In this document: one piece after another, positions 35,352-64,000 of the stretch | How the letters are laid out: every line of letters begins with the position of its first letter | Numbering within the stretch: position 1 is the stretch's first letter | Assembly (NCBI GenBank): GCA_964016885.1 | Contig: OZ024756.1 | Coordinates: 5,828,001-5,892,000 of the forward strand | Reading direction: 5' to 3' | Origin: Eledone cirrhosa | Lineage: Eukaryota | DNA length: 64,000 nucleotides | Made by a program: the position numbers and the translations under genes | The notes under the pieces: model-generated | The model's database searches: none | Seen by the model: only the letters and a program-made list of their open reading frames with translations | Told to the model about the DNA's origin: nothing

Positions 35352-35771
35352 TACTTCTTCTTTTGACTTTGAGGATGTAGTGTGGTGGCTGTAATCGTGG
35401 AACTAGTACTGGATATTAGCAGCGGAGATGTTAACACTCATAAGTTGATAGTAGTGGTAATGTGTTGGAAATGCTAGTGGTAGTGGTTGTGTTTTTTTCT
35501 AGAAGAAGTACCACGTCCACGTATGTGCATATATTTTTTATCTCTCTCTCTATATCTATCTATCTATCTTGATAGAGTAAGACACGCTTCGCATCGACTC
35601 CGCTATTCCATCGGGATTTACCCTTACTATTGTAAGTACCGGATAAATTTTTTAGTGCAACACATTTGGAACACTAACCCCTGTTATTTAGGGAAACATT
35701 TTTGCATTTACCCCCTTTTTAGGGGGTAAAATAAATATCTATTTTTGCCGAAAAATTTCTTTCTTGGCAGC

Positions 35772-37463: not shown

Positions 37464-37607
37464 CACAACTCCAAATACCCCAACCCCACCACACACGTGT
37501 ACCCCCACACCACCACAAAACATCCCTCCACCCAACACACCTGATGCCATGGAAATTACGCAACCCGGAGAGGTAAGTGCTTTTCTTTCTTCACTTTCAA
37601 CACCAAA

Positions 37608-40600: not shown

Positions 40601-41048
40601 GCGCCCGGGCAGGGATCCCGCGAAAAAGATCTGTCCCAGATGCGTGCGCGACGAGGAAACCGTTGCGCATGCACTGGTACACTGCCCGGGCGTTGCCGAT
40701 CTGTGGGGCTACGTCGAACGACTGCTGTCGCGTGTGGCGCCGATTCGATTAACCGCCGAGTCTGTGGTGAACATCAAGCCGCCTCCTCCCTTCAGAAATG
40801 AAGCAGAGGCGGTCTTTCTGTGCGTAATAGCCATGATGAAAGAGGTTGTGTGGTGGACGCGCCTGAAAGGTCTGAGGTCGGGTGACTTTCTCTCCGGCCA
40901 TCACCTGGTTTACTTCTTCCGATACCACTTCGGAAGAAGAATCAGGATGGAGAGAGAAGTGCTTGGTCCCAGACAGTTTTATGAAAGGTGGGTGAAAGAA
41001 GCGAGAATGGCCCGTGTAAATGGGCCTTCTCTCTACATTGTTCTGTAG
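37608..41048 (+). pseudogene. LINE ORF2 (APE endonuclease, reverse transcriptase, zinc finger) with one in-frame stop
   Basis: ORFs 37617-38123 and 38223-41048 are in the same frame, separated by TGA 38121-38123. Motifs: LNARGL, GDWN, YLDRF, SDH (endonuclease); KSPGLDG, FRPITLLN, DQSKAFD, RQGCPL, YADD (RT); CPRC..ETVAHALVHC. Confidence 0.9.
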
Positions 41049-42594
41049 GTGAAGAAGTAAAGAGGAAAGGGGGAGCGCCTCCTCTCTGGGCTTCCCCCGC
41101 GAAAAGAGTTGCACACTTTTCGGGGGTATGTGCAATCCCCAACACGCCCCCTCCCTTTTGAGGACTTTTTATTGTTATATTATTATTGTTATTCCTTTTT
41201 TCTTTACTCGATTTATGTAAACTCCCCCACTGTGTAAATGTCCCCTTCTTTTGTGCCCTCGTGGCAAATAAATAGAAATTTATCTATCTATCTTTCTCTC
41301 TCGCTCTCTCCACACACTCACACACACAAACATACATACATACAGAGGCATACACATATGTTTATTCAAGAATAAACATGACACACACACAGATGTAAAA
41401 TACAGTCGTATCATTGTGTGTGTCTGTGCGTGTGCGCGTGTGTGCGCGTGTGTGTGTGTGAGTGTGGCTGATAACAAGTGGTTCCAAAGCGAACCCTTTA
41501 ACCACACAGCCATGCTACATATTTTACACTGTTCAATTTCTGCTAAAATTTATTCTGAATAATTTGTTTAGATAAAAATAGAAGACGACACTCCCTCAAA
41601 GGCAATCACATCTAACAAATGGGACATAAGACATAAGAATATATATATATATATATAACACGTTGAATTTTATTATATAAAATTATAACCGTTATCATTT
41701 ACCTAAAGTATACTGTATCACTAATACCTAATATATATCCATATATACTTCCCTGTATCTTTCTATACATAATTTTTAGTTAACTTCTAAATTTCTTGAT
41801 TAGTATTTATTTTGAACTATGAATAGTTAATGCATTTACACCCTGTTATATATATGTATATATTTAACTTTAGCATGCCTCAATCTATTATTTTATTTTT
41901 ATTTTCGTTATCATTTACCTAAAATATACTGGCTCATTAATATATATCTATAAACATAATCGTTATTTAAATATTTCTAACAATAAGTACTTCATAAGAT
42001 TTACATACCAAATATGTTGACAATGATTATCTTCGGTAAAGTTTACATTTAGGAAAATATTCAACAGTGTAAACTTTCCTTTCCGCTGGCCAGCTAAATC
42101 CTTTAAATGTTATCCTCAAAAAATTCAGAAGTTTAGAAATATTAACACACTTATAGAATTTACAAAACTAATAAATATAAATATGCAGTAATTTTTAAAA
42201 AAACCTAAAATCTTGATTCTTCACCCTAAAATAGCATAAATTAAATATTTTCAAACTTAACCGTTTAACTTTCGGAAAAAATCTCCTTCTGCATATATTA
42301 CCCCCCCCCCCCCCCCATCCCCTTATCTTTCCGTCTCTATAAATCCTATTTCAGTGGCTCTCATTGACTGTTATAATTCATGAGATGTTTTCCTAGATAA
42401 CCATAAATTGTAGAATCATACATTTCAAAATCTCTATAACTGTCACATTAACTAACCTTTTTCTTACTCACACATTCTCTATTGAATTTATTACGTTTTC
42501 GCATTTTCTCATTATTAGAGTATTTTTTCTCTTAGGTTAATCACTACCTTGATTAAATCTTAACCATTTAACATCTCAGGGTATGTCATGTATC

Positions 42595-42657
42595 ATTATA
42601 TTTTGTCTGATGAGGACGTACTGTTGTACATCCGAAATCTGTATAATAAAATGTAAT
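42595..42657 (+). ncRNA. Minimal type I hammerhead ribozyme motif (Penelope pLTR-like)
   Basis: Stem I ATTATATTTTGT/ATAAAATGTAAT (12 bp, 2 G-U); CTGATGA 42607-13; stem II GGACGTAC-tgtt-GTACATCC (1 mismatch); GAAA 42634-37; 2-bp stem III; AUA cleavage triplet. Confidence 0.75.
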
Positions 42658-42697
42658 TGATCAAAAGAACATCTATTTTATTAATATTTGTATTTTA

Positions 42698-42735
<38 letters not shown>

Positions 42736-42744
42736 ATGTATGTG

Positions 42745-42777
<33 letters not shown>

Positions 42778-43058
42778 TTCTATGTTGGAATTTGTTTTGC
42801 AAGATTTCTCATCTGAAAACCTGTGTTGAAGCAGGTATTGTTATAATTTGGGAGAGTCATGATACTAATAAAACACACGCACCTGTTCGTTTTGATTTCA
42901 ATTTATTACAAGTTTCCAGTCGGTTGGCTATATAACCAGAGGGTTGTTTGTTTATTGTCAAAGCTCTTCCGTCACACATTCTGTGACCTCCTCAGAGATT
43001 AATTTATTATTTTGTGTCTAAAGTTTGTTCTGTCCTACACCATCTTATTTGTGACACA

Positions 43059-43092
<34 letters not shown>

Positions 43093-43096
43093 TAGT

Positions 43097-43207
43097 GAAG
43101 GCGTGTGGCTGAGTGGTTAGTTGAATTCACAATCTTGAGGTTGTGAGTTCGATTCCTGGACCGGGCGTTATGTCCTTGAGCAAGACACTTTCTTTCACGT
43201 TGCTCTT
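43097..43207 (+). mobile_element. Fragment of a second tRNA-derived SINE family
   Basis: A-box-like TGGCTGAGTGG, B-box GAGTTCGATTCC, then the TGTCCTTGAGCAAGACACTT core typical of invertebrate SINEs. Confidence 0.7.
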
Positions 43208-43902
43208 TCTATCTGGAGTTGCAACCGATATATAGTACTAGCAATTGGAAAGACTAACGGAAGCATTGTTTACTCGGATCGATTTGACGAAAGTCGATCG
43301 ATCCTTTAATATATATATATATATATATACAATATATATATATATATACACGTATCGTATTACACCTGGTAGTGTTCCTGAAAAAGACGACCGATTAAAG
43401 AGAGATTTCTAGACTAGAAATAGATAGTAACTTAACCACTACCATGCTAGTCAATACATCGATCTGCCATTGTCAATCAATCCTCTGAAACGATCGTTTT
43501 TTTTATTGTACTATCCACAAACACATGAACTATAGTAAACCACGACTACCATGACGACCACGATGACGTCACATTGTATATGAGTGTGTATGTGTCTGTC
43601 AGTGCGTGTGTGTGTTTTCGAGTTGGTTACATACGTTAGGCCTCAGAGAATTAAAAACACACACACATCTACACATACAAATACATATGGAATGACAAGC
43701 AGGTGTGCGTGGATGTATGTCTTAGTGTCTCTGTCTTACTATAGGTATGTGAGTGTATGTCGGAGTGTATGTGTGTGTTGATGTATGTGTGTGTGAGTGT
43801 AAGTGTGATAATATTTATTTTAACGTTAGGCCTCAGAGAATTAAATACACACATACATATAGCGTTAGTAAATAAAAGGGACATACATATAGCGTTAGTA
43901 AA

Positions 43903-43965
43903 TAAAAGGGACGTAACTCTATGCTTCAAAGCATGGTGTCCGACTCTCTACCGATACTGCCAATG
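43903..43965 (-). mobile_element. SINE 5' head fragment
   Basis: AAAGGGACGTAACTCTATGC...AAAGCATGGTGTCCGAC...CTACCGATACTGCCAAT matches the reverse complement of the family head. Confidence 0.65.
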
Positions 43966-44344
43966 TCAAATATAATGTTCTTTAATGTCTAAAGAAAATT
44001 AATTGTCGCTGGAATGCTTAGACTGAAAATAAAATTTCGCCGGAGATATATTAGCAAAAAATCAATAAGTGTGTATGTGTGTGTGTCGGTTGGGGTGGGG
44101 GTGGGGGAAATAACGGTGGAGGCTGGTGTAATAACGGTGGAGTGGGGGACAAAATCTAAAAGATTACTAATCCGGTGGTACCGGGGTTTGATCTATTATT
44201 AGTCTCTAATGAAAACAATGGTAGAAACTGCCAGTGTTTCTTAGAATAGTGGTTCCTGTTAAATGACCATTCATTTAGAATATTGTGGAGAATTGGCTGG
44301 CATACGAACAAATATGGCCTCATACATACACATACTGACTTAAG

Positions 44345-44570
44345 CATACATAACTATACACACACATACATAACTATACACACCTATACACACGTATACA
44401 CACCTATACACACGCATACAAAACTGTACACACGCATACACACCTGTACACACACCAACGCACCTGTACACACACCAACACACCTGCACACACACCAACA
44501 CACCTGTACACACACCAACACACATGTACACATACCAACACACCTGTACACACACCAACACACCTGTATA
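44345..44570. repeat. 20-bp minisatellite ACACACCTGTACACACACCA
   Basis: Tandem copies visible, degenerate towards the left. Confidence 0.85.
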
Positions 44571-44996
44571 AATTAATACAGGACTTCAGTTATACTGTTA
44601 ACATTTTAAAATTCAATTTTCCTAACACAGAAGAGTTGTAGCTCACAGCTAATATAAATTTAAAATGTCAATAGCAGGATACAGTTATACAATTAACATT
44701 TTAAAAGTAATTGTTACCAATATACAGGGCTTCAGGTAGCTCACAGTCTATATAACTTTGAAAATGTCAATAGTTGAATATCTTATTTGAGCACCACACC
44801 AATCTAAATTGCTATCATTTTCCCAATAAAGGAATTCCAATGAGATACTTGAACCGCTCAATATAGCAACAGAAAATTGCCGTAGCACACTCTGTAGCAC
44901 ATATAAGGTCAAATTTGTCAAGTTTTCAGTTCCTTACAATGAAGACAACATTGTCATATCTAGAAGGCTGATGGAACCCTTCTTTCAACATGTGTC

Positions 44997-45398
44997 TCTA
45001 TAATTTATATACACTACCCTATATATAAGATATACTACGCTATATATTATATAAACTACGCTATATATTATATAAACTACGATATATCTTATATAAACTA
45101 CTCTATATATTGTATAAGTTACCCTATATATTATACAAGCTACTCTATATAATATACAAGCTGCCCTATATATTATATAAACCACCCTATATATTATATA
45201 AGCTACCCTATATATTATATAAACTACGCTATACATTATATAAACTACGCTATGTATTATATAAACTACTCTATATATTATACAAACTACCCTATATATT
45301 ATATAAACTACGCTATATATAATATAAACTAAGCTATATATTATATAAGCTAAAGCTATATATTATATAAACTACGCTATATATTATATAAACTACCT
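44997..45398. repeat. 21-bp minisatellite TATATATTATATAAACTAC(G/C/T)C
   Basis: About 19 tandem copies. Confidence 0.9.
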
Positions 45399-45757
45399 TG
45401 TTTTCAAATACCAAATATTACAGTAGATTATATAAACATTTGCATATGTGTAGTGATATGTATGTGTGTATATATGTGTATGTGTAATGAAATGTATGTG
45501 TGTAGTGACATGGATGTGTGTAGTGACATGTGTGTGTATAGTGAGATGTATGTGTCTGTGTCTGTGTGTGTAGTGAGATGTATGTGTATATATATATATG
45601 TGTGTTTGTGTGTAGTGACATGTATATAGGTATATATGTGTGTAGTGAGATATATGCGTGTATATATATATATATATGTGTGTGTGTATATATATATGTA
45701 CATATATATATATTTATATGCGTGTGTGTGTATATCTGTATATATATATATATATAT

Positions 45758-46405
45758 ACTATCAGTGGTACCCGGGATAAGGTATTTTGGAACGCGGGCC
45801 GCCACCAGACCTAATAGTGGAAAAACTGCATGTCTGGACAATATGTAAAGAAAATAAACCGGATACTCTGATGGCTGGATAATCTTTAAGATTTTCCTCG
45901 ATGAAGTCGGAAAAATGCAGGTTTTCACCTAATGCGGGGCCCTAGGGGATCAAGAAAATGAATTCTTTTTTTATGTGCATAATATGCCTTGAAATTTCGG
46001 GAAAATCGGCTATACGTAACGCCTCAAAAAGCTCTAAGAAGCTGAAATGAAAAAATGAAGTTTTTCACCTAATGCGGGCTCTAAGCCATAGAAAAGTTGG
46101 ATTTTCTTTGCTCACGGTATAAAGAAGAGATTGACTAATACATAATTACAATTTGAAGGAAATCGGTCTGACGTAACGCCTAAAAAAAACCCTAAAAAGC
46201 TGAAAAAAAACGCAGTTTTTCACCTAATGCGGGCCCTAGGGGATGAAAAAAAGTTGAATTTTTTAATGTCCATAGCACTCCCTGAAACATAAGTAATACA
46301 CATGTAAAGTTTGAAAAAGATCGGTTGGGTACTTCTAGAGTTTTAGGGATTCAAACTCTCTCTCACACACACACAGACATACATCCTCAGTTTTATATAT
46401 ATAGA
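45758..46405 (+). mobile_element. Putative non-autonomous Helitron-like (Lep1-type) element with internal subrepeats
   Basis: Begins next to (TA)n. TTTTCACCTAATGCGGG repeats at about 45922, 46063 and 46217. Ends AAGTTTGAA..ATCGG...(CA/CAGA)n...CTCAGTTTTATATATATAG. Family assignment is from remembered architecture only. Confidence 0.45.
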
Positions 46406-46559
46406 AGATATACACACACACTATATATACATACACACACACAGGTAGCGTCATAATGGTGTAATTCAGACAACCAGACATACAGACAGATATTATAAGG
46501 TTGCGACGTTGTAACTATGTACCTATCTAAAAAGACAGACTAAGGAAAAGAGAGTGAGA

Positions 46560-46736
46560 TCGCTAAATCGCCTAATGCGGTCCCTAGGGCATTGAACATT
46601 GGAAATATTATTTGTTCAAAACATTCACAAGACCATAAGTATTACATGTGTAAAGTTTGAAAACAATCGGTTGGGTGGTTCTCGAGTTTTAGGGAGTCAG
46701 ACAGACTGACAGACATTCTCAGTTTTAGATATATAG
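46560..46736 (+). mobile_element. Second, partial copy of the same element (3' end)
   Basis: CCTAATGCGG...TAAAGTTTGAAAACAATCGGTTGGGT...CAGACAGAC...CTCAGTTTTAGATATATAG parallels 46223-46405. Confidence 0.6.
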
Positions 46737-46854
46737 CTTACACAAACAATTGTCTATATTTCACAGTGTATCTTATACACAACAGAGAATGTCTGTGGAT
46801 GTCTTGCATTGGATATGGAATAGTCCATGTTAAACGGGTAGTTAAGGCTAGTCT

Positions 46855-47490
46855 TGTCTCATTCTCTTTCTACCTCTGTCTTTCTCTCTCTCTTTCTCCC
46901 TCTTTCTCTTTGTCTCTCTCTCTCTATCTATCTTTCTCTCTCTCTCAATCTATCTTTCTCTCTCCTTCTCTCTCTCTCTCTACCTTTCCCTTTCTCTCTC
47001 TCTCTCTATCTATCTTTTTCTGTTCTTCTCTCTCTCCCTCTCAACCTTTCCCTTTCTCTATCTCTCTCTCTCTATCTATCTTTTTCTGTTCTCTCTCTCC
47101 CTCTCAACCTTTCCCTTTCTCTATCTCTCTGTTTCTATCTTTCTTTTTCTCTCTGACTGCCTGTCTATCTCTCTGTCTCTCTCTGTTTCACCCCCTATCT
47201 CTATCTTTCTATCTTATTATCTCTTCTTATCTCTCTTTATCTTTCTCTCTTCTTCTCCCTCTCTATCTTTCCCTCTTCTTCTCTCTCTCTCTCCTCTGTC
47301 TTTCTCTTTCTCCCTATCTACCTGTCTATTTTTCTGTCTCTCTCTGTTTCACTCCCTCTCTCTATATTTCCCTCTCATCCCTCCTCTCTCTCTCTCTCTC
47401 TCTCTCCTCTCTCTGTCTACCTGTCTATATTTCTCTTTCACTCGCTCTCTGTCCACCACCTCTCTCTCACTCTTTTCTAATTCATCTCCC
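46855..47490. repeat. Degenerate (CT)n polypyrimidine tract
   Basis: Directly visible simple sequence. Confidence 0.95.
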
Positions 47491-48288
47491 TTAGACTCTG
47501 TTGAACTACAACATGAGAAAAAACTTTGCCGGAACACTCACAAGGCACTTTCTTTTCAAATTAACCATTACCATTGGTCACGATGGTCGGTTTTCTATTT
47601 ACCCTTTACAGTGTTACTTTGACTGAAAACCTTTCTTACATTTCTGTAAAGTCGTTGAAACTAAGTCTACACAAAAAGTACTTAAATAGACAAATTCTAG
47701 AAACGTCTTGTAAAAAGTTGTTTTTGTAAAAAAGCAATCAGTGAGAAATTATTTAGATTTTAATATCGATGAGATAAAACAACATAGAGATGGTCACATC
47801 CATTGTTAAAGAATATTGGTCTGGTAGTCATTAGTATGGAAGACTATATATTATGGTAATTGCGCCAAAGACATTGATTTGTTCACAAATCTAAGATATA
47901 TGAATGGCTTACAAGATAAGGTAAACGTTCTCTTATCAGACTATCTGATATCCGCTGGACGTTCAAAGAATCCAATAAAATGTATTAATATTTATTGATA
48001 ATTTTTCTTTTGTTTGGAGGATTACTGAGATAAAATATTTTACACAGCCATTTAAATGTATATTTTTCTTTTCATTTCTTTAAACAATGTAATTGGTAAA
48101 ATATTTAATACATCTATTTATCGCCACGTCTCCCCCTTTCAATTTCTATATTCATGCATAAATATATGTACGCACGCGCGCGCGCATGTGTGTGTTTGTG
48201 TGCTTCGCGGGTTCAATCGTGGGTAACCACAGTAACTAAAGTACTCAATACATAGAAGAGCATGAATATTTAATTTAGAAATTGGTTT

Positions 48289-48378
48289 TACAGGACTAGA
48301 AATGTTTCATTCGAAAGAAATCATCAGGAAAGCCGTTTCCTGATGATTTCCTTCGAATGAAACAGTTCTAGTGCTGTA
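48289..48378. repeat. 43-bp inverted repeat with a 4-nt loop; each arm carries CTGATGA...GAAAC
   Basis: Arms 48289-48331 and 48336-48378, 3 mismatches, loop GCCG. Confidence 0.9.
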
Positions 48379-48507
48379 GAAGTAATTTATATATTAAATA
48401 TATATAGGAAAACGTTTGACACCGTTCCTATTACCCACTCTACTACCCTAAGTATTGAGTACTCTGGTGCGGTATGGCCCATCTGATTCCTTACCACACA
48501 TCCTTCG

Positions 48508-52876
<4,369 letters not shown>

Positions 52877-52932
52877 TTTGAATCTAATTTCGGCGCGAAC
52901 AGGTTGAAAAACTAGATGTCTGATTTTGAGTT

Positions 52933-53011
52933 TGTCTCCTGATGAATCCTAACCCAGGAAATTCTTATTAATTGGATGTCTAAAAATACGGATGAAACCA
53001 TGGTAGAGATA
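52933..53011 (+). ncRNA. Type I hammerhead ribozyme, family C copy 1
   Basis: Stem I TGTCTC/GAGATA; CTGATGA 52939-45; stem II ATCC/GGAT closing a long loop; GAAA 52994-97; palindromic stem III ACCATGGT; GUA triplet. Confidence 0.8.
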
Positions 53012-53589
53012 TAATTACGGTATGTACACATTTCTTCTAAGTTTAATTTTACAACTAATTGTGTATGGTTGATGATATATTTAGTCAGTTTCCACATGCT
53101 GTCGAAATGTTGGATAAATATACTATATTGGGGCCACCGCGAAGAGGCCACTTTCGGTTATTTGTCGAAGATTTCTTCATAAGAGCCTTTCTTCTTATAG
53201 CTTGGTCTAATTGATTTTTATATGGTTAATTATGCTAATTGGAAGAAGAAACGGTATATATTTTATCTAATAATTCTAAAGACATGATTTATGATATATT
53301 GCTCTGATTATTTAATTTATTAATTCTTCATAGAGCTTAAAAGTGACCGGTTGCAACATATATATCTATAACTTTATGTATATGTAAAACTTTATATTTA
53401 ATAATCTCCCGTTAGGTTGAGATTAAATTTGGCGATATTTGGCTGCGCTTTCTAGCAACAAGCCTTCCCGCCGTAAGCAGCCAATCACATTCTTTCTAAC
53501 TTGACCACAGCCACATAGCGATTCTTAGCCATCTTTGAATCTAATTTCGGCGCGATCAGGTTGAAAAACTAGATGTCTGATTTTGAGTT

Positions 53590-53668
53590 TTGCTCCTGAT
53601 GAATCCTAACTCAGGACATTCCTATTAATTGGATGTCTAAAAATACGGATGAAACCATGGTAGAGATA
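53590..53668 (+). ncRNA. Type I hammerhead ribozyme, family C copy 2 (weaker stem I)
   Basis: CTGATGA 53596-602; ATCC/GGAT; GAAA-CCATGG-TA 53651-62; stem I CTC/GAG. Confidence 0.7.
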
Positions 53669-53951
53669 TAATTACGGTATGTACACATTTCTTCTAAGTT
53701 TAATTTTACAACTAATTGTGTATGGTTGATGATATATTTAGTCAGTTTCTACATGCCGTCGAAATGTTGGATAAATATACTATATTGGGGCCACCGCGAA
53801 GAGGCCACTTTCGGTTATTTGTCGAAGATTTCTTCATAAGAGCCTTTCTTCTTATAGCTTGGTCTAATTGATTTTTTATATGGTTAATTATGCTAATTGG
53901 AAGAAGAAACGGTATATATTTTATCTAATAATTCTAAAGACATGATTTATG

Positions 53952-54018
<67 letters not shown>

Positions 54019-54050
54019 GAAGTGGTTACACAACAGTTAGTTCACCACAC

Positions 54051-54087
54051 CGAGAAAAATTGTTTCACCTTACGGATCCTCAGCTCG
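54051..54087 (-). ncRNA. Degenerate minimal HHR in the Penelope pLTR
   Basis: Minus strand reads CGAG-CTGAGGA-TCC-gtaa-GGT-GAAA-CAATTT-TT-CTCG. Stem I CGAG/CTCG; stem III appears mutated. Confidence 0.6.
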
Positions 54088-54255
54088 TAATGGACATGGT
54101 TATACGGAACAGGAAGGTAAACAGTACGGACGCCCATGCGCAGAAACCATCACTTCACTCAGGCAATACTAAATTGCGTGCGAGAGGTGTAAGGGAGATA
54201 ACTGCGAAAGTCCGAAAGTTTCTATTTGATAAGAAAATTAGGATGTTGTTGTAAT

Positions 54256-54989
54256 TCAATCCAGAGCTTTGTAGTTATGTAAGAGGTGTTTGCAGACGTG
54301 TGGACAACGTGTGAAGAAATCATTTTTCGTGTTTAGGCAATCACTATTGCGTAATCTCTTTAGAATATTTATTCGTTCATCAATACATAGTCCACACAAC
54401 GGATTGTCCCTTGCATATGGCTTGGACTTAGTGATGGCTTTCCATTGAATGGAGTAGTCTATACTTGAGTCCTTGATGGACAATACGTGGCTCGCGAGTT
54501 TTGTGGATGAACGTCTGTCCGGGTACCTAAAGTTCGACTGTTGGTTCAGGAAACGTTCCTTAAATCGGCTCTCCGCCATACCCACGTAGGATTTGACATC
54601 CTGTGGTTGATTTGGTCTGTTGGAAGTGACCACAACTTCATAAAATACAGCGGGTGCGTTGCATTGATGTTGAAGGGGACAAGATTTGGGCTTACGGCAA
54701 GAGCACCCTGGTGGGGTGTTGCTCTTAGGGCTGCTTTCATGTTCTTAGCGCAGGAGTGTACTAGTTTTACTTGGGGTCGGTTAAAGATGGAGCGGTATTT
54801 ATGACCTATGGGAAAGGGTCTATCTAAGAGGACTAGAAATGTTTTGCCTACATTGGTATTAACGTTGAGTGAGAAGGGAGGAGAGAACCAGATAGTGTGT
54901 ATATTGTTACGCTTTCTTTCCTTATTGCTGTTGTTGTTAGTGGGAGAGTAAGTGATAGGTTGCGAGAAGCCGCTATTAGCTTCTCGCAA
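54256..54989 (-). pseudogene. Frameshifted C-terminal part of the Penelope ORF (linker and GIY-YIG nuclease)
   Basis: ORFs 54546-54989 and 54256-54633 encode consecutive parts of one protein in different frames. The RT core is absent. Confidence 0.85.
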
Positions 54990-55152
54990 ACAGGGAAGAT
55001 AAAGCTGACAGAGTTGTTTCGTACATTTTGGTACTTATCAAAGCTAACGACAATAGCGTAAGGTCTTCGAAATGCTTATAATTAAGCATACAGTGTATTT
55101 CAAAATAAACTGTATATGCTTTCATATATTTACCGCTATTTCAGAACACCAA

Positions 55153-55217
<65 letters not shown>

Positions 55218-55383
55218 AATTAATATTTAGTAACATATATATACATACAGATGCATATCAATGCTAGCAAATATATAGGTTTTGTCTTAGTAGCTTTGTG
55301 GTTCAATGCATGGGGTTGCAGAACAATAATATGAGAGACGTAAAGAAGAAAATTATAAAATTAACTTACTTACTAAAATATCA

Positions 55384-55463
55384 CTTCCAACTAATTAGTT
55401 TCTGGAATGGAATAAATATGTTTTCCGAAGAAGACATAGCGAATCATTGCGTCGTCAGGGAAG
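55384..55463 (-). ncRNA. Type I HHR, family A
   Basis: Reverse complement of the motif at 56376-56455. Confidence 0.8.
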
Positions 55464-55905
55464 ACTATTCTCATCTAAGTATCCAGGCAAAGCGTGGACC
55501 TTGGAAACTTATTAAAAAATAATTCAGTGGATAGAAAATAGCAAAGCGTGGACTGAATTCCTAGCCATTGAGAAAATCACTGCCTCTGCGCCGGTGTCAA
55601 ATTCAAAAAGAATCAATCACGTGACATCGAGGTCAATCAGTGGAAAGTGGTTTGCTAATAAGACGGCGGCCTGCCTGCTACCATAGCAGCAGTCATGGCC
55701 AATATTGCTCGACAAATAATTTGGAGATAATTATAAAGAATTAATATTTAGTAACATATATATACATACAGATGCATATCAATGCTAGCAAATATATGGG
55801 TTTTGTCTTAGTAGCTTTGTGGTTCAATGCATGGGGTTGCAGAACAATAATATGAGAGACGTAAAATAAGAAAATTATAAAATTAACTTACTTACTAAAA
55901 TATCA

Positions 55906-55985
55906 CTTCCAACTAATTAGTTTCTGGAATGGAATAAATATATTTTCCGAAGAAGACATGGAGAATCATTGCGTCGTCAGGGAAG
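55906..55985 (-). ncRNA. Type I HHR, family A
   Basis: Reverse complement of the motif at 56376-56455. Confidence 0.8.
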
Positions 55986-56375
55986 ACTATTCTCATCTAA
56001 GTATCCAGGCAAAGCTTGGACTCTGGAAACGTATTAAAAAATAATTCAGTGAAAGCAAAGAGTGGACTGAATTCCTAGCCATTGAGAAAATCACTGCCTT
56101 CTTTATAATTGTCTCCAAATTATTTGTCGAGCAATATTGGCCATGACTGCTGCTATGGTAGCAGGCAGGCCGCTGTCTTATTAGCAAACCACTTTCCACT
56201 GATTGACCTCGATGTCACGTGATTGATTCTTTTTGAATTTGCCACCGACGCAGAGGCAGTGATTTTCCCAATGGCTAGGAATTCAGTCCACGCTTTGCTA
56301 TTTTCTATCCATTGAATTATTTTTTAATAGGTTTCCAGAGTCCACGCTTTGCCTGGATACTTAGATGAGAATAGT

Positions 56376-56455
56376 CTTCCCTGACGACGCAATGATTCTC
56401 CATGTCTTCTTCGGAAAATATATTTATTCCATTCCAGAAACTAATTAGTTGGAAG
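56376..56455 (+). ncRNA. Type I HHR, family A
   Basis: Stem I CTTCC/GGAAG; CTGACGA 56381-87; stem II GCAATG/CATTCC extended by a hairpin with a C(TTCG)G loop; GAAA 56437-40; palindromic ACTAATTAGT; GUU triplet. Confidence 0.82.
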
Positions 56456-56897
56456 TGATATTTTAGTAAGTAAGTTAATTTTATAATTTTCTTATTTTAC
56501 GTCTCTCATATTATTGTTCTGCAACCCCATGCATTGAACCACAAAGCTACTAAGACAAAACCCATATATTTGCTAGCATTGATATGCATCTGTATGTATA
56601 TATATGTTACTAAATATTAATTCTTTATAATTATCTCCAAATTATTTGTCGAGCAATATTGGCCATGACTGCTGCTATGGTAGCAGGCAGGCCGCTGTCT
56701 TATTAGCAAAGCACTTTCCACTGATTGACCTCGATGCCACGTGATTGATTCTTTTTGAATTTGCCACCGACGCAGAGGCAGTGATTTTTTCAATGGCTAG
56801 GAATTCAGTCCACGCTTTGCTATTTTCTATCCACTGAATTATTTTTTAATAAGTTTCCAGAGTCCACGCTTTGCCTGGATACTTAGATGAGAATAGT

Positions 56898-56977
56898 CTT
56901 CCCTGACGACGCAATGATTCGCCATGTCTTCTTCGGAAAATATATTTATTCCATTCCAGAAACTAATTAGTTGGAAG
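56898..56977 (+). ncRNA. Type I HHR, family A
   Basis: Same motif; CTGACGA 56903-09, GAAA 56959-62. Confidence 0.82.
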
Positions 56978-57058
56978 TGATATTTTAGTAAGTAAGTTAA
57001 TTTTATAATTTTCTTATTTTACGTTTCTCATATTATTGTTCTGCAACCCCATGCATTG

Positions 57059-58824
57059 TACCGCTTACACTGAGGCCAGAGATGAGGCACTGATAGAGAA
57101 GATAAGAAGTGTGGGGAGAGCGGTTGACAGATCTGGATGTAAGGAGAGCTGGATGATCATCAACGAGATCACAGGGAGGAAGAGAAGGTGTTCCAGTCAG
57201 ATCCAGGGAACGGGGCACGAGGATAGGAAGAGGAAATGGCTAGACCATTTTAGGACCCTACTAGGAGAGCCACCCTCCACAGCCCAAAGCACTGGGGAGA
57301 TCAGGCGGCTGTTTGAGGAACTGGATATTGAGGCAGAGCCCTTCACCAGAGAGGATCTTAAGAGAGCCAAGAAGAGGATCAAGGAGGGCAAGGCTCAGGG
57401 AGAAGATGGAGTGGCATCAGAGGTGATGAAGAGGTGTGATTTTGATGATATCATCCTGGGGTTCTGTTACCCCGAATCAGGGGAGGATCAGTAACATCGT
57501 CCCAGTGCCAAAGAAGGGAGATCTCTCTAACACCAACAACTACAGGGGGATCTCACTGACGACACGTGTGGTAAAGACCCTCAACAGGATGATTCTTAAC
57601 AGGATCCAGCCTGAGGTGGAGAAGAAGCTCAGGGACAACCAGAACGGCTTCAGAGAGGGAAGATCAACCACCAGTCACATCCTGATGCTGAGGAGCATAT
57701 TAGAGGGAGCTAGAGCAAAGTGCCTTCCTGCGGTCATGGTTTTCATTGACTTTAGGAAGGCCTTTGATTTTGTGGACCGTCACTGCCTGATGAAGATCTT
57801 ACAGGCTTATGGAATCCCCAAGAGGACAGTGGACCTGATATCACTGCTCTACACCAACACTAAAGCCCAAGTCATTACACCTGATGGGATGACAGAGTTC
57901 TTTGAGATGCTGGCTGAAGTGTTCCAGGGAGATACATCGGCTCCCTACATTTTTATCATCGTAGTGTACTATTGTATGCGCCTTGCACTGGAGAAACACC
58001 AGGACACTGGCTTTACAGTAGAACCGGCTCAGAGCAGGAGAGTTAAGGCGAAAAAGGTATCAGATGCTGAATTTGCCGACGACATAGTTTTGGTGACAAA
58101 TACAGTGAAGGAGGCAGAGGATTTGATGCAGGAGGTTGAGACTGTGTCGATGAGTGTGGGGCTGAGAATGAATGAGACTAAAACAAAATATCTGGTAGAG
58201 AATGTTGAGAAGCAGGAGGAGATCACTAATATAGGCGGGAAGCTGCTAGAATTGGTTGAGGACTTCCTGTATTTGGGAGCAAAGATTGGGAATACGGAAG
58301 ATGATGTGGCTGAGAGGAAGAGCAAAGCCTGGGCGGCGTGTCACAGGTTGAGATCGGTGTGGAAGTCGAACCTTCGTGAAGACCTGAAAATCCGCCTCTT
58401 CATTGCTTTAGTGGAGTCTGTGCTGCTGTACGGGTCTGAGACTTGGACACTGACCAAGGAACTCACTCAGATGGTGGATGAGTGCTACACGAGAATGCTG
58501 AGGATGGCTCTGAACATTAATCAGCATACACTGAGGCTGAAAAACTCAGAGCTGTATGGGAGTCTCCCAAAAGTCAGCTCAACTGTGACACAGAGGAGAC
58601 TGAGGTTAGCTGGACATGCTCACCGACATCCAGAGTTGACATTGCACTCAGTGGTCCTGTGGGAGCCCCTACATGAACACACTGGAAGAGGAAGACCAAG
58701 GTTAACGTATGTTGATGCCCTAAGGACAGACACTGGTCTGTTGGAGACGAAGAACATGGCAGCGATAATGAGGGACAGAGACCGCTGGAGAGAACTCGTC
58801 CATGGATCTCGGGAATTTTACCCG

Positions 58825-58827
<3 letters not shown>
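57059..58827 (+). mobile_element. 5'-truncated RTE-type LINE (RT domain and C terminus), frameshifted near 57470, ending in (TA)n
   Basis: PVPKKGDL..NYRGISL, QNGFREGRST, FIDFRKAFD, QGD, FADD, FLYLG, LLYGSETW, RRLRLAGH, GRGRPR..DRDRW. Confidence 0.88.
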
Positions 58828-58871
<44 letters not shown>

Positions 58872-58945
58872 AAAATGGAACGGGAACAAAACATAGAAGC
58901 AATAAAAACAAAGGTTTATTAGTTTCACGCTCTTGAGTGTAGGGG

Positions 58946-58992
<47 letters not shown>

Positions 58993-59165
58993 ACTAACAT
59001 AGGCGCACAGATGCACGTCCATGCCAGCAAATACACAGGTTATGTCATAGTACCTAGGTGGTTCAATGCAGGAGGGTGCAGAACTATAATATAAAAGACG
59101 TAAAATAAGAAAATATTTTTTAAAAAATTTTTTAAAAAGTTTTTTACTTACTTACTTAAATTTTC

Positions 59166-59247
59166 ACTCCAACTAATTAGTTTCTGCAATGGGATAAAGA
59201 CAGTTACATAATCCAACTGTCGAGAATTCATTGCGTCATCAGGGAGT
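59166..59247 (-). ncRNA. Type I HHR, family B
   Basis: Reverse complement of the motif at 61693-61774. Confidence 0.82.
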
Positions 59248-59724
59248 CTATTCTCAGCTGAGCCTCCAGGCAATGCGCGGACACTAGCGGCTCATATAAA
59301 AATAATAATTCGGTAGAAAGAACCGCTAGGCGAGGACTGGATTCTATGTACTGAAATTCTCACTGCTTCCAGTCAAATGGCCGATTCTAAAGAATCAATC
59401 ACGTGACATAGAGGCTAGTTAGAAGGAATGGGATGGTAAGATGACTGACGCCTACTAACACCCCAACAAAAAAATTTTGAAGTGGTTTTGGCAGGTTTGC
59501 TCGACAAATCAGTGATTTGGAGATAAATATAGATAATTTAATATATCAACTAACATAGGCGCACAGATGCACGTCCATGCCAGCAAATACACAGGTTATG
59601 TCATAGCATCTAGGTGGTTCAATGCAGGAGGGTGCAGAACAATAATATAAAAGACGTAAAATAAGAAAATATTTTTTAAAAAATTTAAAAAAAAATTTTT
59701 TTTTACTTACTTACTTAAATTTTC

Positions 59725-59806
59725 ACTCCAACTAATTAGTTTCTGCAATGGGATAAAGACAGTTACATAATCCAACTGTCGAGAATTCATTGCGTCATCA
59801 GGGAGT
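59725..59806 (-). ncRNA. Type I HHR, family B
   Basis: Reverse complement of the motif at 61693-61774. Confidence 0.82.
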
Positions 59807-60280
59807 CTATTCTCAGCTGAGCCTCCAGGCAATGCGCGGACACTGGCGGCTCATATAAAAATAATAATTCGGTAGAAAGAACAGCTAGGCGAGGACTGGA
59901 TTCTATGTACTGAAATTCTCACTGCTTCCAGTCAAATGGCCGATTCTAAAGAATCAATCACGTGACATAGAGGCTAGTTAGAAGGAATGGGATGGTAAGA
60001 TGACTGACGCCTACTAACACCCCAACAAAAAAATTTTGAAGTGGTTTTGGCAGGTTTGCTCGACAAATCAGTGATTTGGAGATAAATATAGATAATTTAA
60101 TATATCAACTAACATAGGCGCACAGATGCACGTCCATGCCAGCAAATACACAGGTTATGTCATAGTACCTAGGTGGTTCAATGCAGGAGGGTGCAGAACA
60201 ATAATATAAAAGACGTAAAATAAGAAAATATTTTTTAAAAAATTTTAAAAAATTTTTTTTACTTACTTACTTAAATTTTC

Positions 60281-60362
60281 ACTCCAACTAATTAGTTTCT
60301 GCAATGGGATAAAGACAGTTACATAATCCAACTGTCGAGAATTCATTGCGTCATCAGGGAGT
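60281..60362 (-). ncRNA. Type I HHR, family B
   Basis: Reverse complement of the motif at 61693-61774. Confidence 0.82.
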
Positions 60363-60837
60363 CTATTCTCAGCTGAGCCTCCAGGCAATGCGCGGACACT
60401 GGCGGCTCATATAAAAATAATAATTCGGTAGAAAGAACAGCTAGGCGAGGACTGGATTCTATGTACTGAAATTCTCACTGCTTCCAGTCAAATGGCCGAT
60501 TCTAAAGAATCAATCACGTGACATAGAGGCTAGTTAGAAGGAATGGGATGGTAAGATGACTGACGCCTACTAACACCCCAAAAAAAATTTTGAAGTGGTT
60601 TTGGCAGGTTTGCTCGACAAATCAGTGATTTGGAGATAAATATAGATAATTTAATATATCAACTAACATAGGCGCACAGATGCACGTCCATGCCAGCAAA
60701 TACACAGGTTATGTCATAGCATCTAGGTGGTTCAATGCAGGAGGGTGCAGAACAATAATATAAAAGACGTAAAATAAGAAAATATTTTTAAAAAATGTTA
60801 AAAAACATTTTTTTTTTACTTACTTACTTACATTTTC

Positions 60838-60919
60838 ACTCCAACTAATTAGTTTCTGCAATGGGATAAAGACAGTTACATAATCCAACTGTCGAGAATT
60901 CATTGCGTCATCAGGGAGT
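60838..60919 (-). ncRNA. Type I HHR, family B
   Basis: Reverse complement of the motif at 61693-61774. Confidence 0.82.
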
Positions 60920-61391
60920 CTATTCTCAGCTGAGCCTCCAGGCAATGCGCGGACACTGGCGGCTCATATAAAAATAATAATTCGGTAGAAAGAACAGCTA
61001 GGCGAGGACTGGATTCTATGTACTGAAATTCTCACTGCTTCCAGTCAAATGGCCGATTCTAAAGAATCAATCACGTGACATAGAGGCTAGTTAGAAGGAA
61101 TGGGATGGTAAGATGACTGACGCCTACTAACACCCCAAAAAAAATTTTGAAGTGGTTTTGGCAGGTTTGCTCGACAAATCAGTGATTTGGAGATAAATAT
61201 AGATAATTTAATATATCAACTAACATAGGCGCACAGATGCACGTCCATGCCAGCAAATACACAGGTTATCTCATAGTACCTAGGTGGTTCAATGCAGGAG
61301 GGTGCAGAACAATAATATAAAAGACGTAAATTAAGAAAATATTTTTTTAAAAATTTTTTAAAAATTTTTTTACTTACTTACTTAAATTTTC

Positions 61392-61437
61392 ACTCCAACT
61401 AATTAGTTTCTGAGAATTCATTGCGTCATCAGGGAGT
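61392..61437 (-). pseudogene. Family B HHR with an approximately 36-bp deletion removing most of stem II
   Basis: GTTTCTG is joined directly to AGAATTCATTGCG; CAATGGGATAAAGACAG...CTGTCG is missing. Confidence 0.75.
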
Positions 61438-61692
61438 CTATTCACAGCTGAGCCTCCAGGCAAAAAAATTTTTTTGGGGTGTTAGTAGGCGTCAGTCATC
61501 TTACCATCCCATTCCTTCTAACTAGCCTCTATGTCACGTGATTGATTCTTTAGAATCGGCCATTTGACTGGAAGCAGTGAGAATTTCAGTACATAGAATC
61601 CAGTCCTCGCCTAGCTGTTCTTTCTACCGAATTATTATTTTTATATGAGCCGCCAGTGTCCGCGCATTGCCTGGAGGCTCAGCTGAGAATAG

Positions 61693-61774
61693 ACTCCCTG
61701 ATGACGCAATGAATTCTCGACAGTTGGATTATGTAACTGTCTTTATCCCATTGCAGAAACTAATTAGTTGGAGT
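61693..61774 (+). ncRNA. Type I HHR, family B
   Basis: Stem I ACTCC/GGAGT; CTGATGA 61698-704; stem II GCAATG/CATTGC with inner hairpin GACAGTT/AACTGTC; GAAA 61756-59; palindromic ACTAATTAGT; GUU triplet. Confidence 0.85.
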
Positions 61775-62246
61775 GAAAATTTAAGTAAGTAAGCAAAAAA
61801 ATTTTTTAAAAATTTTTTAAAAAATATTTTCTTATTTTACATCTTTTATATTATTGTTCTGCACCCTCCTGCATTGAACCACCTAGGTACTATGACATAA
61901 CCTGTGTATTTGCTGGCATGGACGTGCATCTGTGCGCCTATGTTAGTTGATATATTAAATTATCTATATTTATCTCCAAATCACTGATTTGTCGAGCAAA
62001 CCTGCCAAAACCACTTCAACATTTTTTGGGGGGTGTTAGTAGGCGTCAGTCATCTTACCATCCCATTCCTTCTAACTAGCCTCTATGTCACGTGATTGAT
62101 TCTTTAGAATCGGCCATTTGACTGGAAGCAGTGAGAATTTCAGTACATAGAATCCAGTCCTCGCCTAGCTGTTCTTTCTACCGAATTATTATTTTTATAT
62201 GAGCCGCCAGTGTCCGCGCATTGCCTGGAGGCTCAGCTGAGAATAG

Positions 62247-62328
62247 ACTCCCTGATGACGCAATGAATTCTCGACAGTTGGATTATGTAACTGTCTTTAT
62301 TCCATTGCAGAAACTAATTAGTTGGAGT
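62247..62328 (+). ncRNA. Type I HHR, family B
   Basis: Same motif as 61693-61774. Confidence 0.85.
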
Positions 62329-62800
62329 GAAAATTTAAGTAAGAAAGTAAAAAAATTTTTAAAAAATTTTTAAAAAAATATTTTCTTATTTTACGTCTTT
62401 TATATTATTGTTCTGCACCCTCCTGCATTGAACCACCTAGGTACTATGAGATAACCTGTGTATTTGCTGGCATGGACGTGCATCTGTGCGCCTATGTTAG
62501 TTGATATATTAAATTATCTATATTTATCTCCAAATCACTGATTTGTCGAGCAAACCTGCCAAAACCACTTCAAAATTTTTTTTGGGGTGTTAGTAGGCGT
62601 CAGTCATCTTACCATCCCATTCCTTCTAACTAGCCTCTATGTCACGTGATTGATTCTTTAGAATCGGCCATTTGACTGGAAGCAGTGAGAATTTCAGTAC
62701 ATAGAATCCAGTCCTCGCCTAGCTGTTCTTTCTACCGAATTATTATTTTTATATGAGCCGCCAGTGTCCGCGCATTGCCTGGAGGCTCAGCTGAGAATAG

Positions 62801-62882
62801 ACTCCCTGATGACGCAATGAATTCTCGACAGTTGGATTATGTAACTGTCTTTATCCCATTGCAGAAACTAATTAGTTGGAGT
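62801..62882 (+). ncRNA. Type I HHR, family B
   Basis: Same motif as 61693-61774. Confidence 0.85.
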
Positions 62883-63354
62883 GAAAATTTAAGTAAGTAA
62901 GCAAAAAATTTTTTTAAAAATTTTTTAAAAAATATTTTCTTATTTTACATCTTTTATATTATTGTTCTGCACCCTCCTGCATTGAACCACCTAGGTACTA
63001 TGACATAACCTGTGTATTTGCTGGCATGGACGTGCATCTGTGCGCCTATGTTAGTTGATATATTAAATTATCTATATTTATCTCCAAATCACTGATTTGT
63101 CGAGCAAACCTGCCAAAACCACTTCAAAATTTTTTTTGGGGTGTTAGTAGGCGTCAGTCATCTTACCATCCCATTCCTTCTAACTAGCCTCTATGTCACG
63201 TGATTGATTCTTTAGAATCGGCCATTTGACTGGAAGCAGTGAGAATTTCAGTACATAGAATCCAGTCCTCGCCTAGCTGTTCTTTCTACCGAATTATTAT
63301 TTTTATATGAGCCGCCAGTGTCCGCGCATTGCCTGGAGGCTCAGCTGAGAATAG

Positions 63355-63436
63355 ACTCCCTGATGACGCAATGAATTCTCGACAGTTGGATTATGTAACT
63401 GTCTTTATTCCATTGCAGAAACTAATTAGTTGGAGT
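63355..63436 (+). ncRNA. Type I HHR, family B
   Basis: Same motif as 61693-61774. Confidence 0.85.
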
Positions 63437-63908
63437 GAAAATTTAAGTAAGAAAGTAAAAAACTTTTTAAAAAATTTTAAAAAAAATATTTTCTTATTTT
63501 ACGTCTTTTATATTATTGTTCTGCACCCTCCTGCATTGAACCACCTAGGTACTATGAGATAACCTGTGTATTTGCTGGCATGGACGTGCATCTGTGCGCC
63601 TATGTTAGTTGATATATTAAATTATCTATATTTATCTCCAAATCACTGATTTGTCGAGCAAACCTGCCAAAACCACTTCAAAATTTTTTTTGGGGTGTTA
63701 GTAGGCGTCAGTCATCTTACCATCCCATTCCTTCTAACTAGCCTCTATGTCACGTGATTGATTCTTTAGAATCGGCCATTTGACTGGAAGCAGTGAGAAT
63801 TTCAGTACATAGAATCCAGTCCTCGCCTAGCTGTTCTTTCTACCGAATTATTATTTTTATATGAGCCGCCAGTGTCCGCGCATTGCCTGGAGGCTCAGCT
63901 GAGAATAG

Positions 63909-63989
63909 ACTCCCTGATACGCAATGAATTCTCGACAGTTGGATTATGTAACTGTCTTTATCCCATTGCAGAAACTAATTAGTTGGAGT
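63909..63989 (+). pseudogene. Family B HHR with a 1-nt core deletion (CTGAT-A)
   Basis: CCCTGATACGCAATG instead of CCCTGATGACGCAATG. This is either a real mutation or a consensus error. Confidence 0.65.
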
Positions 63990-64000
63990 GAAAATTTAAG

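Follow-up and report, generated by a model that had tools for sequence, protein, structure and literature searches.

Non-coding tandem units that each carry a hammerhead ribozyme (HHR) are known from animal genomes as retrozymes without long terminal repeats (non-LTR retrozymes), for which unit lengths of 150-450 bp are quoted (Cervera and de la Pena 2020, PMC7229834). They have been argued to derive from the pseudo-LTRs (pLTRs) of Penelope-like elements (PLEs) in a study which searched tandem periods up to 1000 and which states as open whether retrozyme multimers arise as whole insertions or by local growth, and from circular or linear RNA (Li et al. 2026, bioRxiv 10.64898/2026.07.22.740005). 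PLE insertions typically show an inverted 5'-truncated copy beside a tandem, with a bias to (TA)n, and the origin of these inverted structures is also stated as open (PMC8557442). Head-to-head is described as the most frequent PLE arrangement (PMC3846280), and opposite-strand HHR pairs 100-700 bp apart were noted already in 2014 (PMC4209133). Here we describe two inverted HHR arrays, A and B, from Eledone cirrhosa, found in a stretch of 64,000 nucleotides (assembly GCA_964016885.1, contig OZ024756.1, positions 5,828,001 to 5,892,000 of the forward strand). We call the whole stretch the window and count all coordinates from its first nucleotide. In both arrays the ribozyme-sense strands point outward from a central junction, an arrangement which in itself is a known PLE hallmark. 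We propose, with a probability of about 0.6, that each array goes back to a single insertion in which a borrowed Penelope-like reverse transcriptase (RT) and endonuclease cut a (TA)n repeat and primed on both of its strands. Like animal non-LTR retrozymes, A and B are non-coding, have a GC content below 50% and consist of tandem units, each with a type I hammerhead or hammerhead-like motif; unlike them, their units of 522 bp (A) and 554-559 bp (B) exceed the 150-450 bp range, which is typical and descriptive rather than strict.

Structure of the inverted arrays

The arms were placed by blastn of one unit of each array against the window and by the context of the junctions. Array A is composed as follows:

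55158-55214: target repeat (TA)28, bordering the left arm of A on its outer side; 4 nt (55211-55214) are shared with the element
55211/55215-56099, minus strand: left (inverted) arm of A, 1.7 units (unit positions 156-522, a full unit, and unit positions 1-5/9)
56099: inversion junction of A, with 1 shared base and no (TA)n remnant except the unit's own TATA
56099-57058/57062, plus strand: right arm of A, 1.85 units (a full 522-bp unit and unit positions 1-438/442)
55458 and 55980, minus strand, 56381 and 56903, plus strand: HHR-like cores of A

Array B is longer and reaches the end of the window:

58946-58990: target repeat (TA)22, bordering the left arm of B on its outer side; 6 nt (58985-58990) are shared with the element
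58985/58991-61463, minus strand: left (inverted) arm of B, 4.5 units of 554-559 bp
61461-61464: inversion junction of B, with 0-3 nt of microhomology
61464-64000, plus strand: right arm of B, 4.6 units (four complete 554-bp units of two alternating types and a partial fifth at the window end)
59242, 59801, 60357 and 60914, minus strand: HHR cores of B that pass the descriptor; 61432, minus strand: core without 36 nt of stem II
61698, 62252, 62806 and 63360, plus strand: HHR cores of B that pass the descriptor; about 63914, plus strand: core with a 1-nt deletion

An earlier note on this DNA had placed the change of direction at about 56099 in A and about 61462 in B; we find the first at 56099 and place the second at 61463/61464. 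The note's further description, with HHRs on the minus strand in left arms and on the plus strand in right arms and with left outer ends fused to (TA)n, agrees with our placement, since the cores follow the strands of their arms and the left ends abut (TA)28 and (TA)22. Its CAA microhomology at the junction of B is possible within the 0-3 nt that can be shared, but it is not needed: a blunt join at 61463/61464 suffices, as the right unit starting at 61464 is then exactly 554 nt long like the other three, and we dropped CAA as a proven microhomology. Both structures had also been called giant, which is appropriate for B but not for A, whose stem measures 0.8 kb (781 matches in 809 columns) around an unpaired loop of 155 nt, with perfect runs of up to 350 nt. 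The stem of B is at least 2.3 kb long within the window (2259 matches in 2347 columns), with an unpaired loop of 203 nt and perfect runs of up to 451 nt. The right outer end of A is hidden by its fusion to a long interspersed nuclear element (LINE), and that of B lies beyond the window edge.

Innermost left copies of both arrays carry a deletion near the junction: in A (copy 55741-56099) 8 nt are missing about 46 nt from it, and in B (copy 61149-61463) 36 nt are missing about 50 nt (46-51) from it, with the loss of half of stem II. These deletions perhaps reflect slippage as cDNA synthesis ends. The four complete units in the right arm of B (61464-63679) have the same length of exactly 554 nt in spite of shifting boundaries of A/T runs, and the left units vary from 554 to 559 nt.

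Inverted structures of this kind could be produced by sequencing fold-back or by an assembly mis-join. The surroundings are extremely repetitive and the junctions are known from the assembly alone, which speaks for such an origin. Of 17 sequencing runs listed for the junction stretch, 14 contain part of it, the best a fraction of 0.47 of its words, and none of those listed is an RNA run, which is evidence neither for nor against the junctions. Against it, the 200 nt beside the junctions are only 26% and 28% identical to their mirror images, which is background, the loops measure 155 and 203 nt, and the joins overlap by at most 3 nt, too little for an overlap mis-join. Because the arms are not mirror copies of each other and carry arm-specific substitutions in addition to the private deletions of 8 nt in A and 36 nt in B, a fold-back artefact appears unlikely, and to an artefactual origin of either kind we assign a very small probability.

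Units and hammerhead motifs

Units A and B are 69% identical, while within each array the arms belong to the same family at 96-98%. Their GC contents are 0.36 and 0.37. No stop-to-stop open reading frame (ORF) of at least 90 amino acids is present in A or B, except for the LINE frame starting at 57009, nor does either contain the RT plus GIY-YIG ORF of an autonomous PLE. Each unit has a type I hammerhead-like motif with a 5-bp stem I, CUGANGA and GAAA cores, an extra C after A9, G10.1-C11.1, a palindromic stem III and a GUU triplet. A representative motif is found in B:

61693-61773, plus strand: type I hammerhead with a 5-bp stem I, CUGAUGA, extra C, 6-bp stem II, extra A, GAAA, palindromic stem III and GUU

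A strict HHR descriptor is passed by eight of the ten B units, compared to zero matches in 200 shuffles of the region; B has the two or more consecutive complete motifs that are asked of a non-LTR retrozyme. None of the four A units pass it, owing to a C-C mismatch in stem II, with the core, the 5-bp stem I and the palindromic stem III present. Two base pairs of stem I are changed on both sides between A and B, with pairing kept. The extra nucleotide after A9, G10.1-C11.1 and the palindromic stem III are traits of PLE-type HHRs, and the motifs match this type in all three. The extra A before G12 is a departure from the PLE type, and it makes HHR activity uncertain. PLE-type HHRs are described as requiring dimers and as cleaving weakly (PMC4209133).

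Rfam gave no matches in the window at the gathering threshold, and a search of 52800-61800 up to E 10 gave no hammerhead match in either array; in unconstrained folds of the A motif the hammerhead shape was not formed. As circles the units of both arrays fold better than shuffled sequences (z about -4, 30 shuffles), which is no proof of circular RNA. Scans with the HHR pattern of metagenome contigs, viral contigs and prokaryote genomes, none of them animal and therefore little informative, returned zero matches. From these characteristics A and B are best described as related non-LTR retrozyme-like units, a putative new family of a known mechanism class.

Two further blocks are conserved between the units. 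One is a stretch of 26 nt, 96% identical between A and B (e.g. 55607-55632 and 59389-59414), with a palindromic E-box-like octamer inside, lost in one A copy. The other is a block of about 130 nt ahead of the site at which the left arms end. Promoter signals and binding sites of the enzyme are candidate functions of these blocks. Immediately past the HHR lie GTAAGT repeats, which resemble putative splice donors.

Probable insertion at (TA)n repeats

Both left ends abut (TA)n. Counted from the predicted cleavage site, they lie 175-179 nt beyond it in A and 180-186 nt beyond it in B, 10-20 alignment columns apart, and a longer TA stretch of 9 nt, about 25 nt upstream of the left end of A, was not used. 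Such near-homologous positions suggest a fixed internal start site, with a rough, hand-estimated probability of chance agreement of about 0.1. No (TA)n run is found at either central junction. The two neighboring insertions to the left, a 657-bp HHR repeat (C) and a broken PLE, have (TA)n at both ends; since the centers of A and B, unlike these insertions, are devoid of it, one event per array is favored.

This is in accordance with what is known of PLE enzymes. The Anolis PLE protein is reported to cleave AT-rich DNA, to cut and extend both strands and to start internally on RNA (PMC11167929). By analogy, a PLE enzyme would cut both strands of a (TA)n target, and each target 3' end would anneal to the AT-rich site of a unit, which would then be copied inward. 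Both cDNAs would remain unfinished; fused to each other where they are 5'-truncated, over 0-3 nt of microhomology, they would have their sense strands pointing outward. The start at a TA microsatellite and the flip probably represent the usual scar of insertion by Penelope-like retrotransposons, borne in this case by their non-coding parasites.

Instead of one insertion, two independent opposite insertions into the same (TA)n, or a later partial inversion of a tandem array, could have been followed by deletion of what lay between. The region is indeed a nest of repeated (TA)n insertions, the arms of B largely differ in their markers (see below), and the innermost left copies of both arrays carry the junction-near deletions described above. 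Yet neither center retains a (TA)n remnant, the arms are of the same family at 96-98% in both arrays, and in A the left end and the start of the right arm overlap within 9 nt. An inversion of flanking DNA, moreover, would not end at a fixed site of the unit, and such a course of events would be needed two or three times in 16 kb. We regard it as improbable.

The right arm of A raises the question of the enzyme, as it is fused straight to a LINE with no (TA)n between them:

57063-58827, plus strand: 5'-truncated, broken LINE (RVT_1, E 1.5e-31; break near 57470-57490)
58828-58867: (TA)20 at the 3' end of this LINE

This LINE, which may be RTE-like, substitutes for the right outer end of A. Its RT could have started on LINE RNA at (TA)n and switched to A RNA, with the second target end priming inside A, and the direct join of the right arm to a 5'-truncated LINE ending in (TA)20 is what such a switch would leave. 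But B has the same geometry and the same left-end site with no LINE of its own in the window, the HHR is of PLE type, and the join may equally be explained by a later LINE insertion which deleted about 90 bp of the end of A. We rate LINE machinery as a slightly more improbable maker of A than two separate insertions or an inversion would be.

The RNA template

Twin priming, in which both target ends prime on the same RNA, has been proposed for 5' inversions of L1 (Kojima 2010, PMC2912911). At the same point L1 inversions have median deletions of 14.5 nt and duplications of 22 nt (bioRxiv 10.1101/2024.08.27.596794). In unit coordinates the left end and the start of the right arm overlap by 5-9 nt in A and are separated by a gap of 62-68 nt in B; the corresponding continuity test, done post hoc, gave p values of 0.036 (A), 0.25 (B) and 0.051 (combined). 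This near-continuity hints at twin priming, with A fitting well and B loosely.

The markers of single units in B provide further information on the template (columns in homopolymer runs and past the end of copy L5 were masked, with 442 of 560 kept; L and R copies are numbered by arm). In the right arm R1 is identical to R3 and R2 to R4, with zero differences in 442 columns, and the two types differ at five sites. In the left arm L2 and L4 differ at one site and share two markers missing from the right arm. Altogether seven sites are common to two or three copies. The right-arm markers 330, 334 and 384 are present in none of the five left copies, and the left-arm markers 430 and 432 in none of the four right copies that cover them. 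There are weak links across the arms, all in one alternating register: site 301 in A groups L1 with R1 against L2 with R2, and site 439 in B groups L1 with R2 and R4. These single-site links would lean slightly to one RNA.

Simple circles were rejected as the template of B. One monomer circle would require seven parallel mutations for the seven shared sites, and with one dimer circle the left arm should carry the right-arm markers as well, yet three of these are found in none of its five copies. A rolling-circle copy of one circular RNA would leave identical units or one period through both arms, and B has neither. What remains for B, as far as the markers indicate, is one linear multimer from a mosaic source, two multimeric RNAs, or a short insertion grown later. 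Multimeric retrozyme RNAs have been described in axolotl (PMC7229834), and weak HHRs would presumably leave linear multimers uncut. The earlier note had suggested a single two-ended target-primed event on a multimeric or circular template. A Penelope-type insertion does fit, given the centers without (TA)n, the near-homologous left ends and the published head-to-head structures, while a simple circle for B does not fit the marker sets.

The third of these possibilities means that a short PLE-type inverted insertion with one or two units per arm came first and that the arms, mainly those of B, grew later at the locus, two units at a time, through unequal exchange or slippage. The inversion would then be a scar of insertion, and its size would not. 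In both B arms two unit types alternate, and each arm has its own markers (R1=R3 and R2=R4, and L2 against L4 with one difference), A has only 1.7 and 1.85 units, and local amplification is favored by Li et al. 2026 (bioRxiv 10.64898/2026.07.22.740005). However, a variant at the start of the unit, common to the adjacent L4 and L5, breaks the two-unit period, L3 and L5 differ at three sites, both arms would have to expand to a similar length, and the alternation could equally have been copied from a source array. Local growth is for these reasons doubtful, though it deserves more weight than the other alternatives to the proposed insertion.

For insertion of the arrays as wholes, two templates come into question. 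Both primers may have annealed to a single linear multimer, left uncleaved after transcription of a mosaic source array, which would be twin priming proper and is the weaker step of the proposed mechanism, or each may have used a separate multimeric RNA, which we consider nearly as likely. Our tentative suggestion, which we hold to be possible rather than probable, is that the head-to-head inversions of PLEs are products of twin priming in which both primers start on a single multimeric RNA, still uncleaved, at one fixed internal site but in different units, and that multi-kilobase retrozyme arrays are inserted whole. If this is true, inversion breakpoints modulo unit length would be a genome-wide test of the PLE mechanism for which sequence is sufficient.

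Several points weigh against the proposed one-step insertion by a PLE enzyme. Only two events are available. (TA)n is present at both left ends, whereas both right outer ends are hidden; with these ends missing and microsatellites as targets, a target-site duplication is not recognizable. The two-ended origin is thus half tested, supported from the left ends with the right outer ends out of sight. The LINE to which the right arm of A is fused is a possible real mobilizer, and the PLE fragment beside A has no DNA similarity to A or B, and no cognate autonomous PLE was found in the window. Stem II has a C-A opposition at its base in the HHRs of both arrays, in addition to the C-C mismatch of array A. 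The junctions come from assembled sequence. With respect to the template, continuity is of borderline significance for the two arrays combined and of none for B by itself, the mostly different markers of the B arms mean that one RNA requires a mosaic source, and the perfect alternation R1=R3 and R2=R4 could stem from later local duplication.

Possible double-stranded RNA

A read-through transcript of the arrays would fold into long duplexes with perfect runs of up to 451 nt. Promoters inside the units, firing outward, could not make such a hairpin, which would require read-through from outside, e.g. from the right arm of A or the LINE into B past AATAAA at 58901. The earlier note had named such hairpins as a possible substrate of small interfering RNA production or A-to-I editing; this part of its reading is unsupported, and long double-stranded RNA is to be seen as a possible side effect. 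We also searched for an inherited signature of A-to-I editing and rejected it, there being no A-to-G excess among the copies (1 of 13 sites in B, 4 of 21 in A).

It may still be asked if the host keeps the inverted arrays as hairpin loci which silence the family through small interfering RNAs (siRNAs) or editing. Stem lengths of 0.8 kb in A and at least 2.3 kb in B, and perfect runs of up to 350 and 451 nt, would be suitable, the plus-strand right arm of A and the LINE do point into B with the one AATAAA between, and rotifer PLEs are reported to yield small RNAs (PMC3846280). On the other hand, internal promoters would point outward, the copies show no A-to-G excess, A is truncated by the LINE, the locus is known here as DNA, and the geometry is fully explained as an insertion by-product. 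We find a selected hairpin locus the least credible of the explanations, and the inversion would be a by-product of insertion rather than a selected double-stranded RNA device.

Neighboring insertions

The DNA of the window is animal-like and rich in simple repeats. From 48509 onward it consists of a nest of (TA)n insertions: C, the broken PLE on the minus strand, array A, the LINE and array B. Other features outside the arrays are:

1-29492: satellite with a 21-nt unit, 29.5 kb
35730-41048: two-ORF LINE with RVT_1 and zf-RVT and a single stop near 38123
48266-48402: D, a third and older head-to-head HHR-like palindrome, centered at about 48334, the right arm reaching (TA)n at 48509
48509-52877: long (TA)n array, 4.4 kb, with C-over-G skew
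52878-53957, plus strand: C, 657-bp HHR repeat, 1.64 units with a (TA)n run on each side and no inversion
54019-55157, minus strand: broken, 5'-truncated and frameshifted PLE with the C-terminal endonuclease region, its 3' end on (TA)n

The two-ORF LINE is presumably L1/Tx1-like. A lone type I HHR at 42607, with an 8-bp stem I, passes the descriptor; (TA)n/(TG)n follows it at about 42697, and a search of 41000-48500 gave no inverted partner. D has cores at 48327 (minus) and 48340 (plus), arms of about 66 nt at 86% identity and a center of 5 nt, the same type of short-palindrome junction as is described for PLEs. The HHR of C is of type I with a palindromic stem III and a GUA triplet, the descriptor is passed by its first copy only, and blastn gave no relation of C to A or B. 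Six HHR-bearing insertions were noticed in the window, three of them head-to-head (A, B and D) and three not (C, the PLE fragment and the motif at 42607).

The PLE fragment has CxCX5C, CxxC and CxH motifs; close to its 3' end, at 54083, it also has an HHR-like core. It appears Hydra-clade-like, a label given from the motifs, read by eye against the published description of the (TA)n-targeting Hydra clade (PMC8557442). Atlas provided only a lead, with a score of 0.94 to a cluster with GIY-YIG in 22% of its members; no Pfam family was matched, and a homologue search returned none at E 0.001. An Rfam match to HH9 at 54994-55048 is weak (17 bits, E 3.1) and was taken as chance.

Comparison with known systems

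Inverted arrays are not mentioned in the two main texts on retrozymes, figures and supplements aside: the word "inverted" occurs 0 times in that of PMC7229834 and once, in the title of a reference, in that of bioRxiv 10.64898/2026.07.22.740005. The literature covered, which leaves figures, supplements and most subscription papers outside its scope, yielded neither a description of retrozyme insertions that are both multimeric and inverted nor an application of twin priming to PLEs. A close likeness exists to PLE insertions (Arkhipova 2013, PMC3846280; Craig 2021, PMC8557442), especially those of the (TA)n-targeting Hydra clade, with which A and B share the head-to-head 5' inversion, the tandem units, (TA)n at the left ends and the PLE-type HHR. 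They differ from PLE insertions in having no ORF and in that the inverted part is itself a multimer of up to 4.5 units. Their junction loops of 155-203 nt also differ from the short palindromes behind the self-priming proposal of Arkhipova 2013 (PMC3846280). Non-autonomous Chlamys PLEs such as MRC1 are similar in being non-autonomous and PLE-mobilized and in forming multicopy head-to-tail insertions (PMC8557442), a likeness by description only, as these elements are green algal and mostly without HHR.

With the 5' inversion of L1 by twin priming the arrays share the head-to-head arrangement, a short overlap or gap, and microhomology at the outer end. They have no poly(A) and no L1 sequence, in contrast to L1 twin priming, and because the template is tandem their continuity can be tested only modulo unit length. 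The internal start of A and B apparently lies at a fixed site, as opposed to the chance match of L1 twin priming.

Counts of breakpoints across one genome could test the origin of both retrozyme multimers and PLE inversions, to which two events in one window only suggest an answer. Retrozymes were previously tied to PLEs by HHR type, distribution and phylogeny; A and B add to this a probable PLE insertion scar, an apparently fixed start site and marked units.

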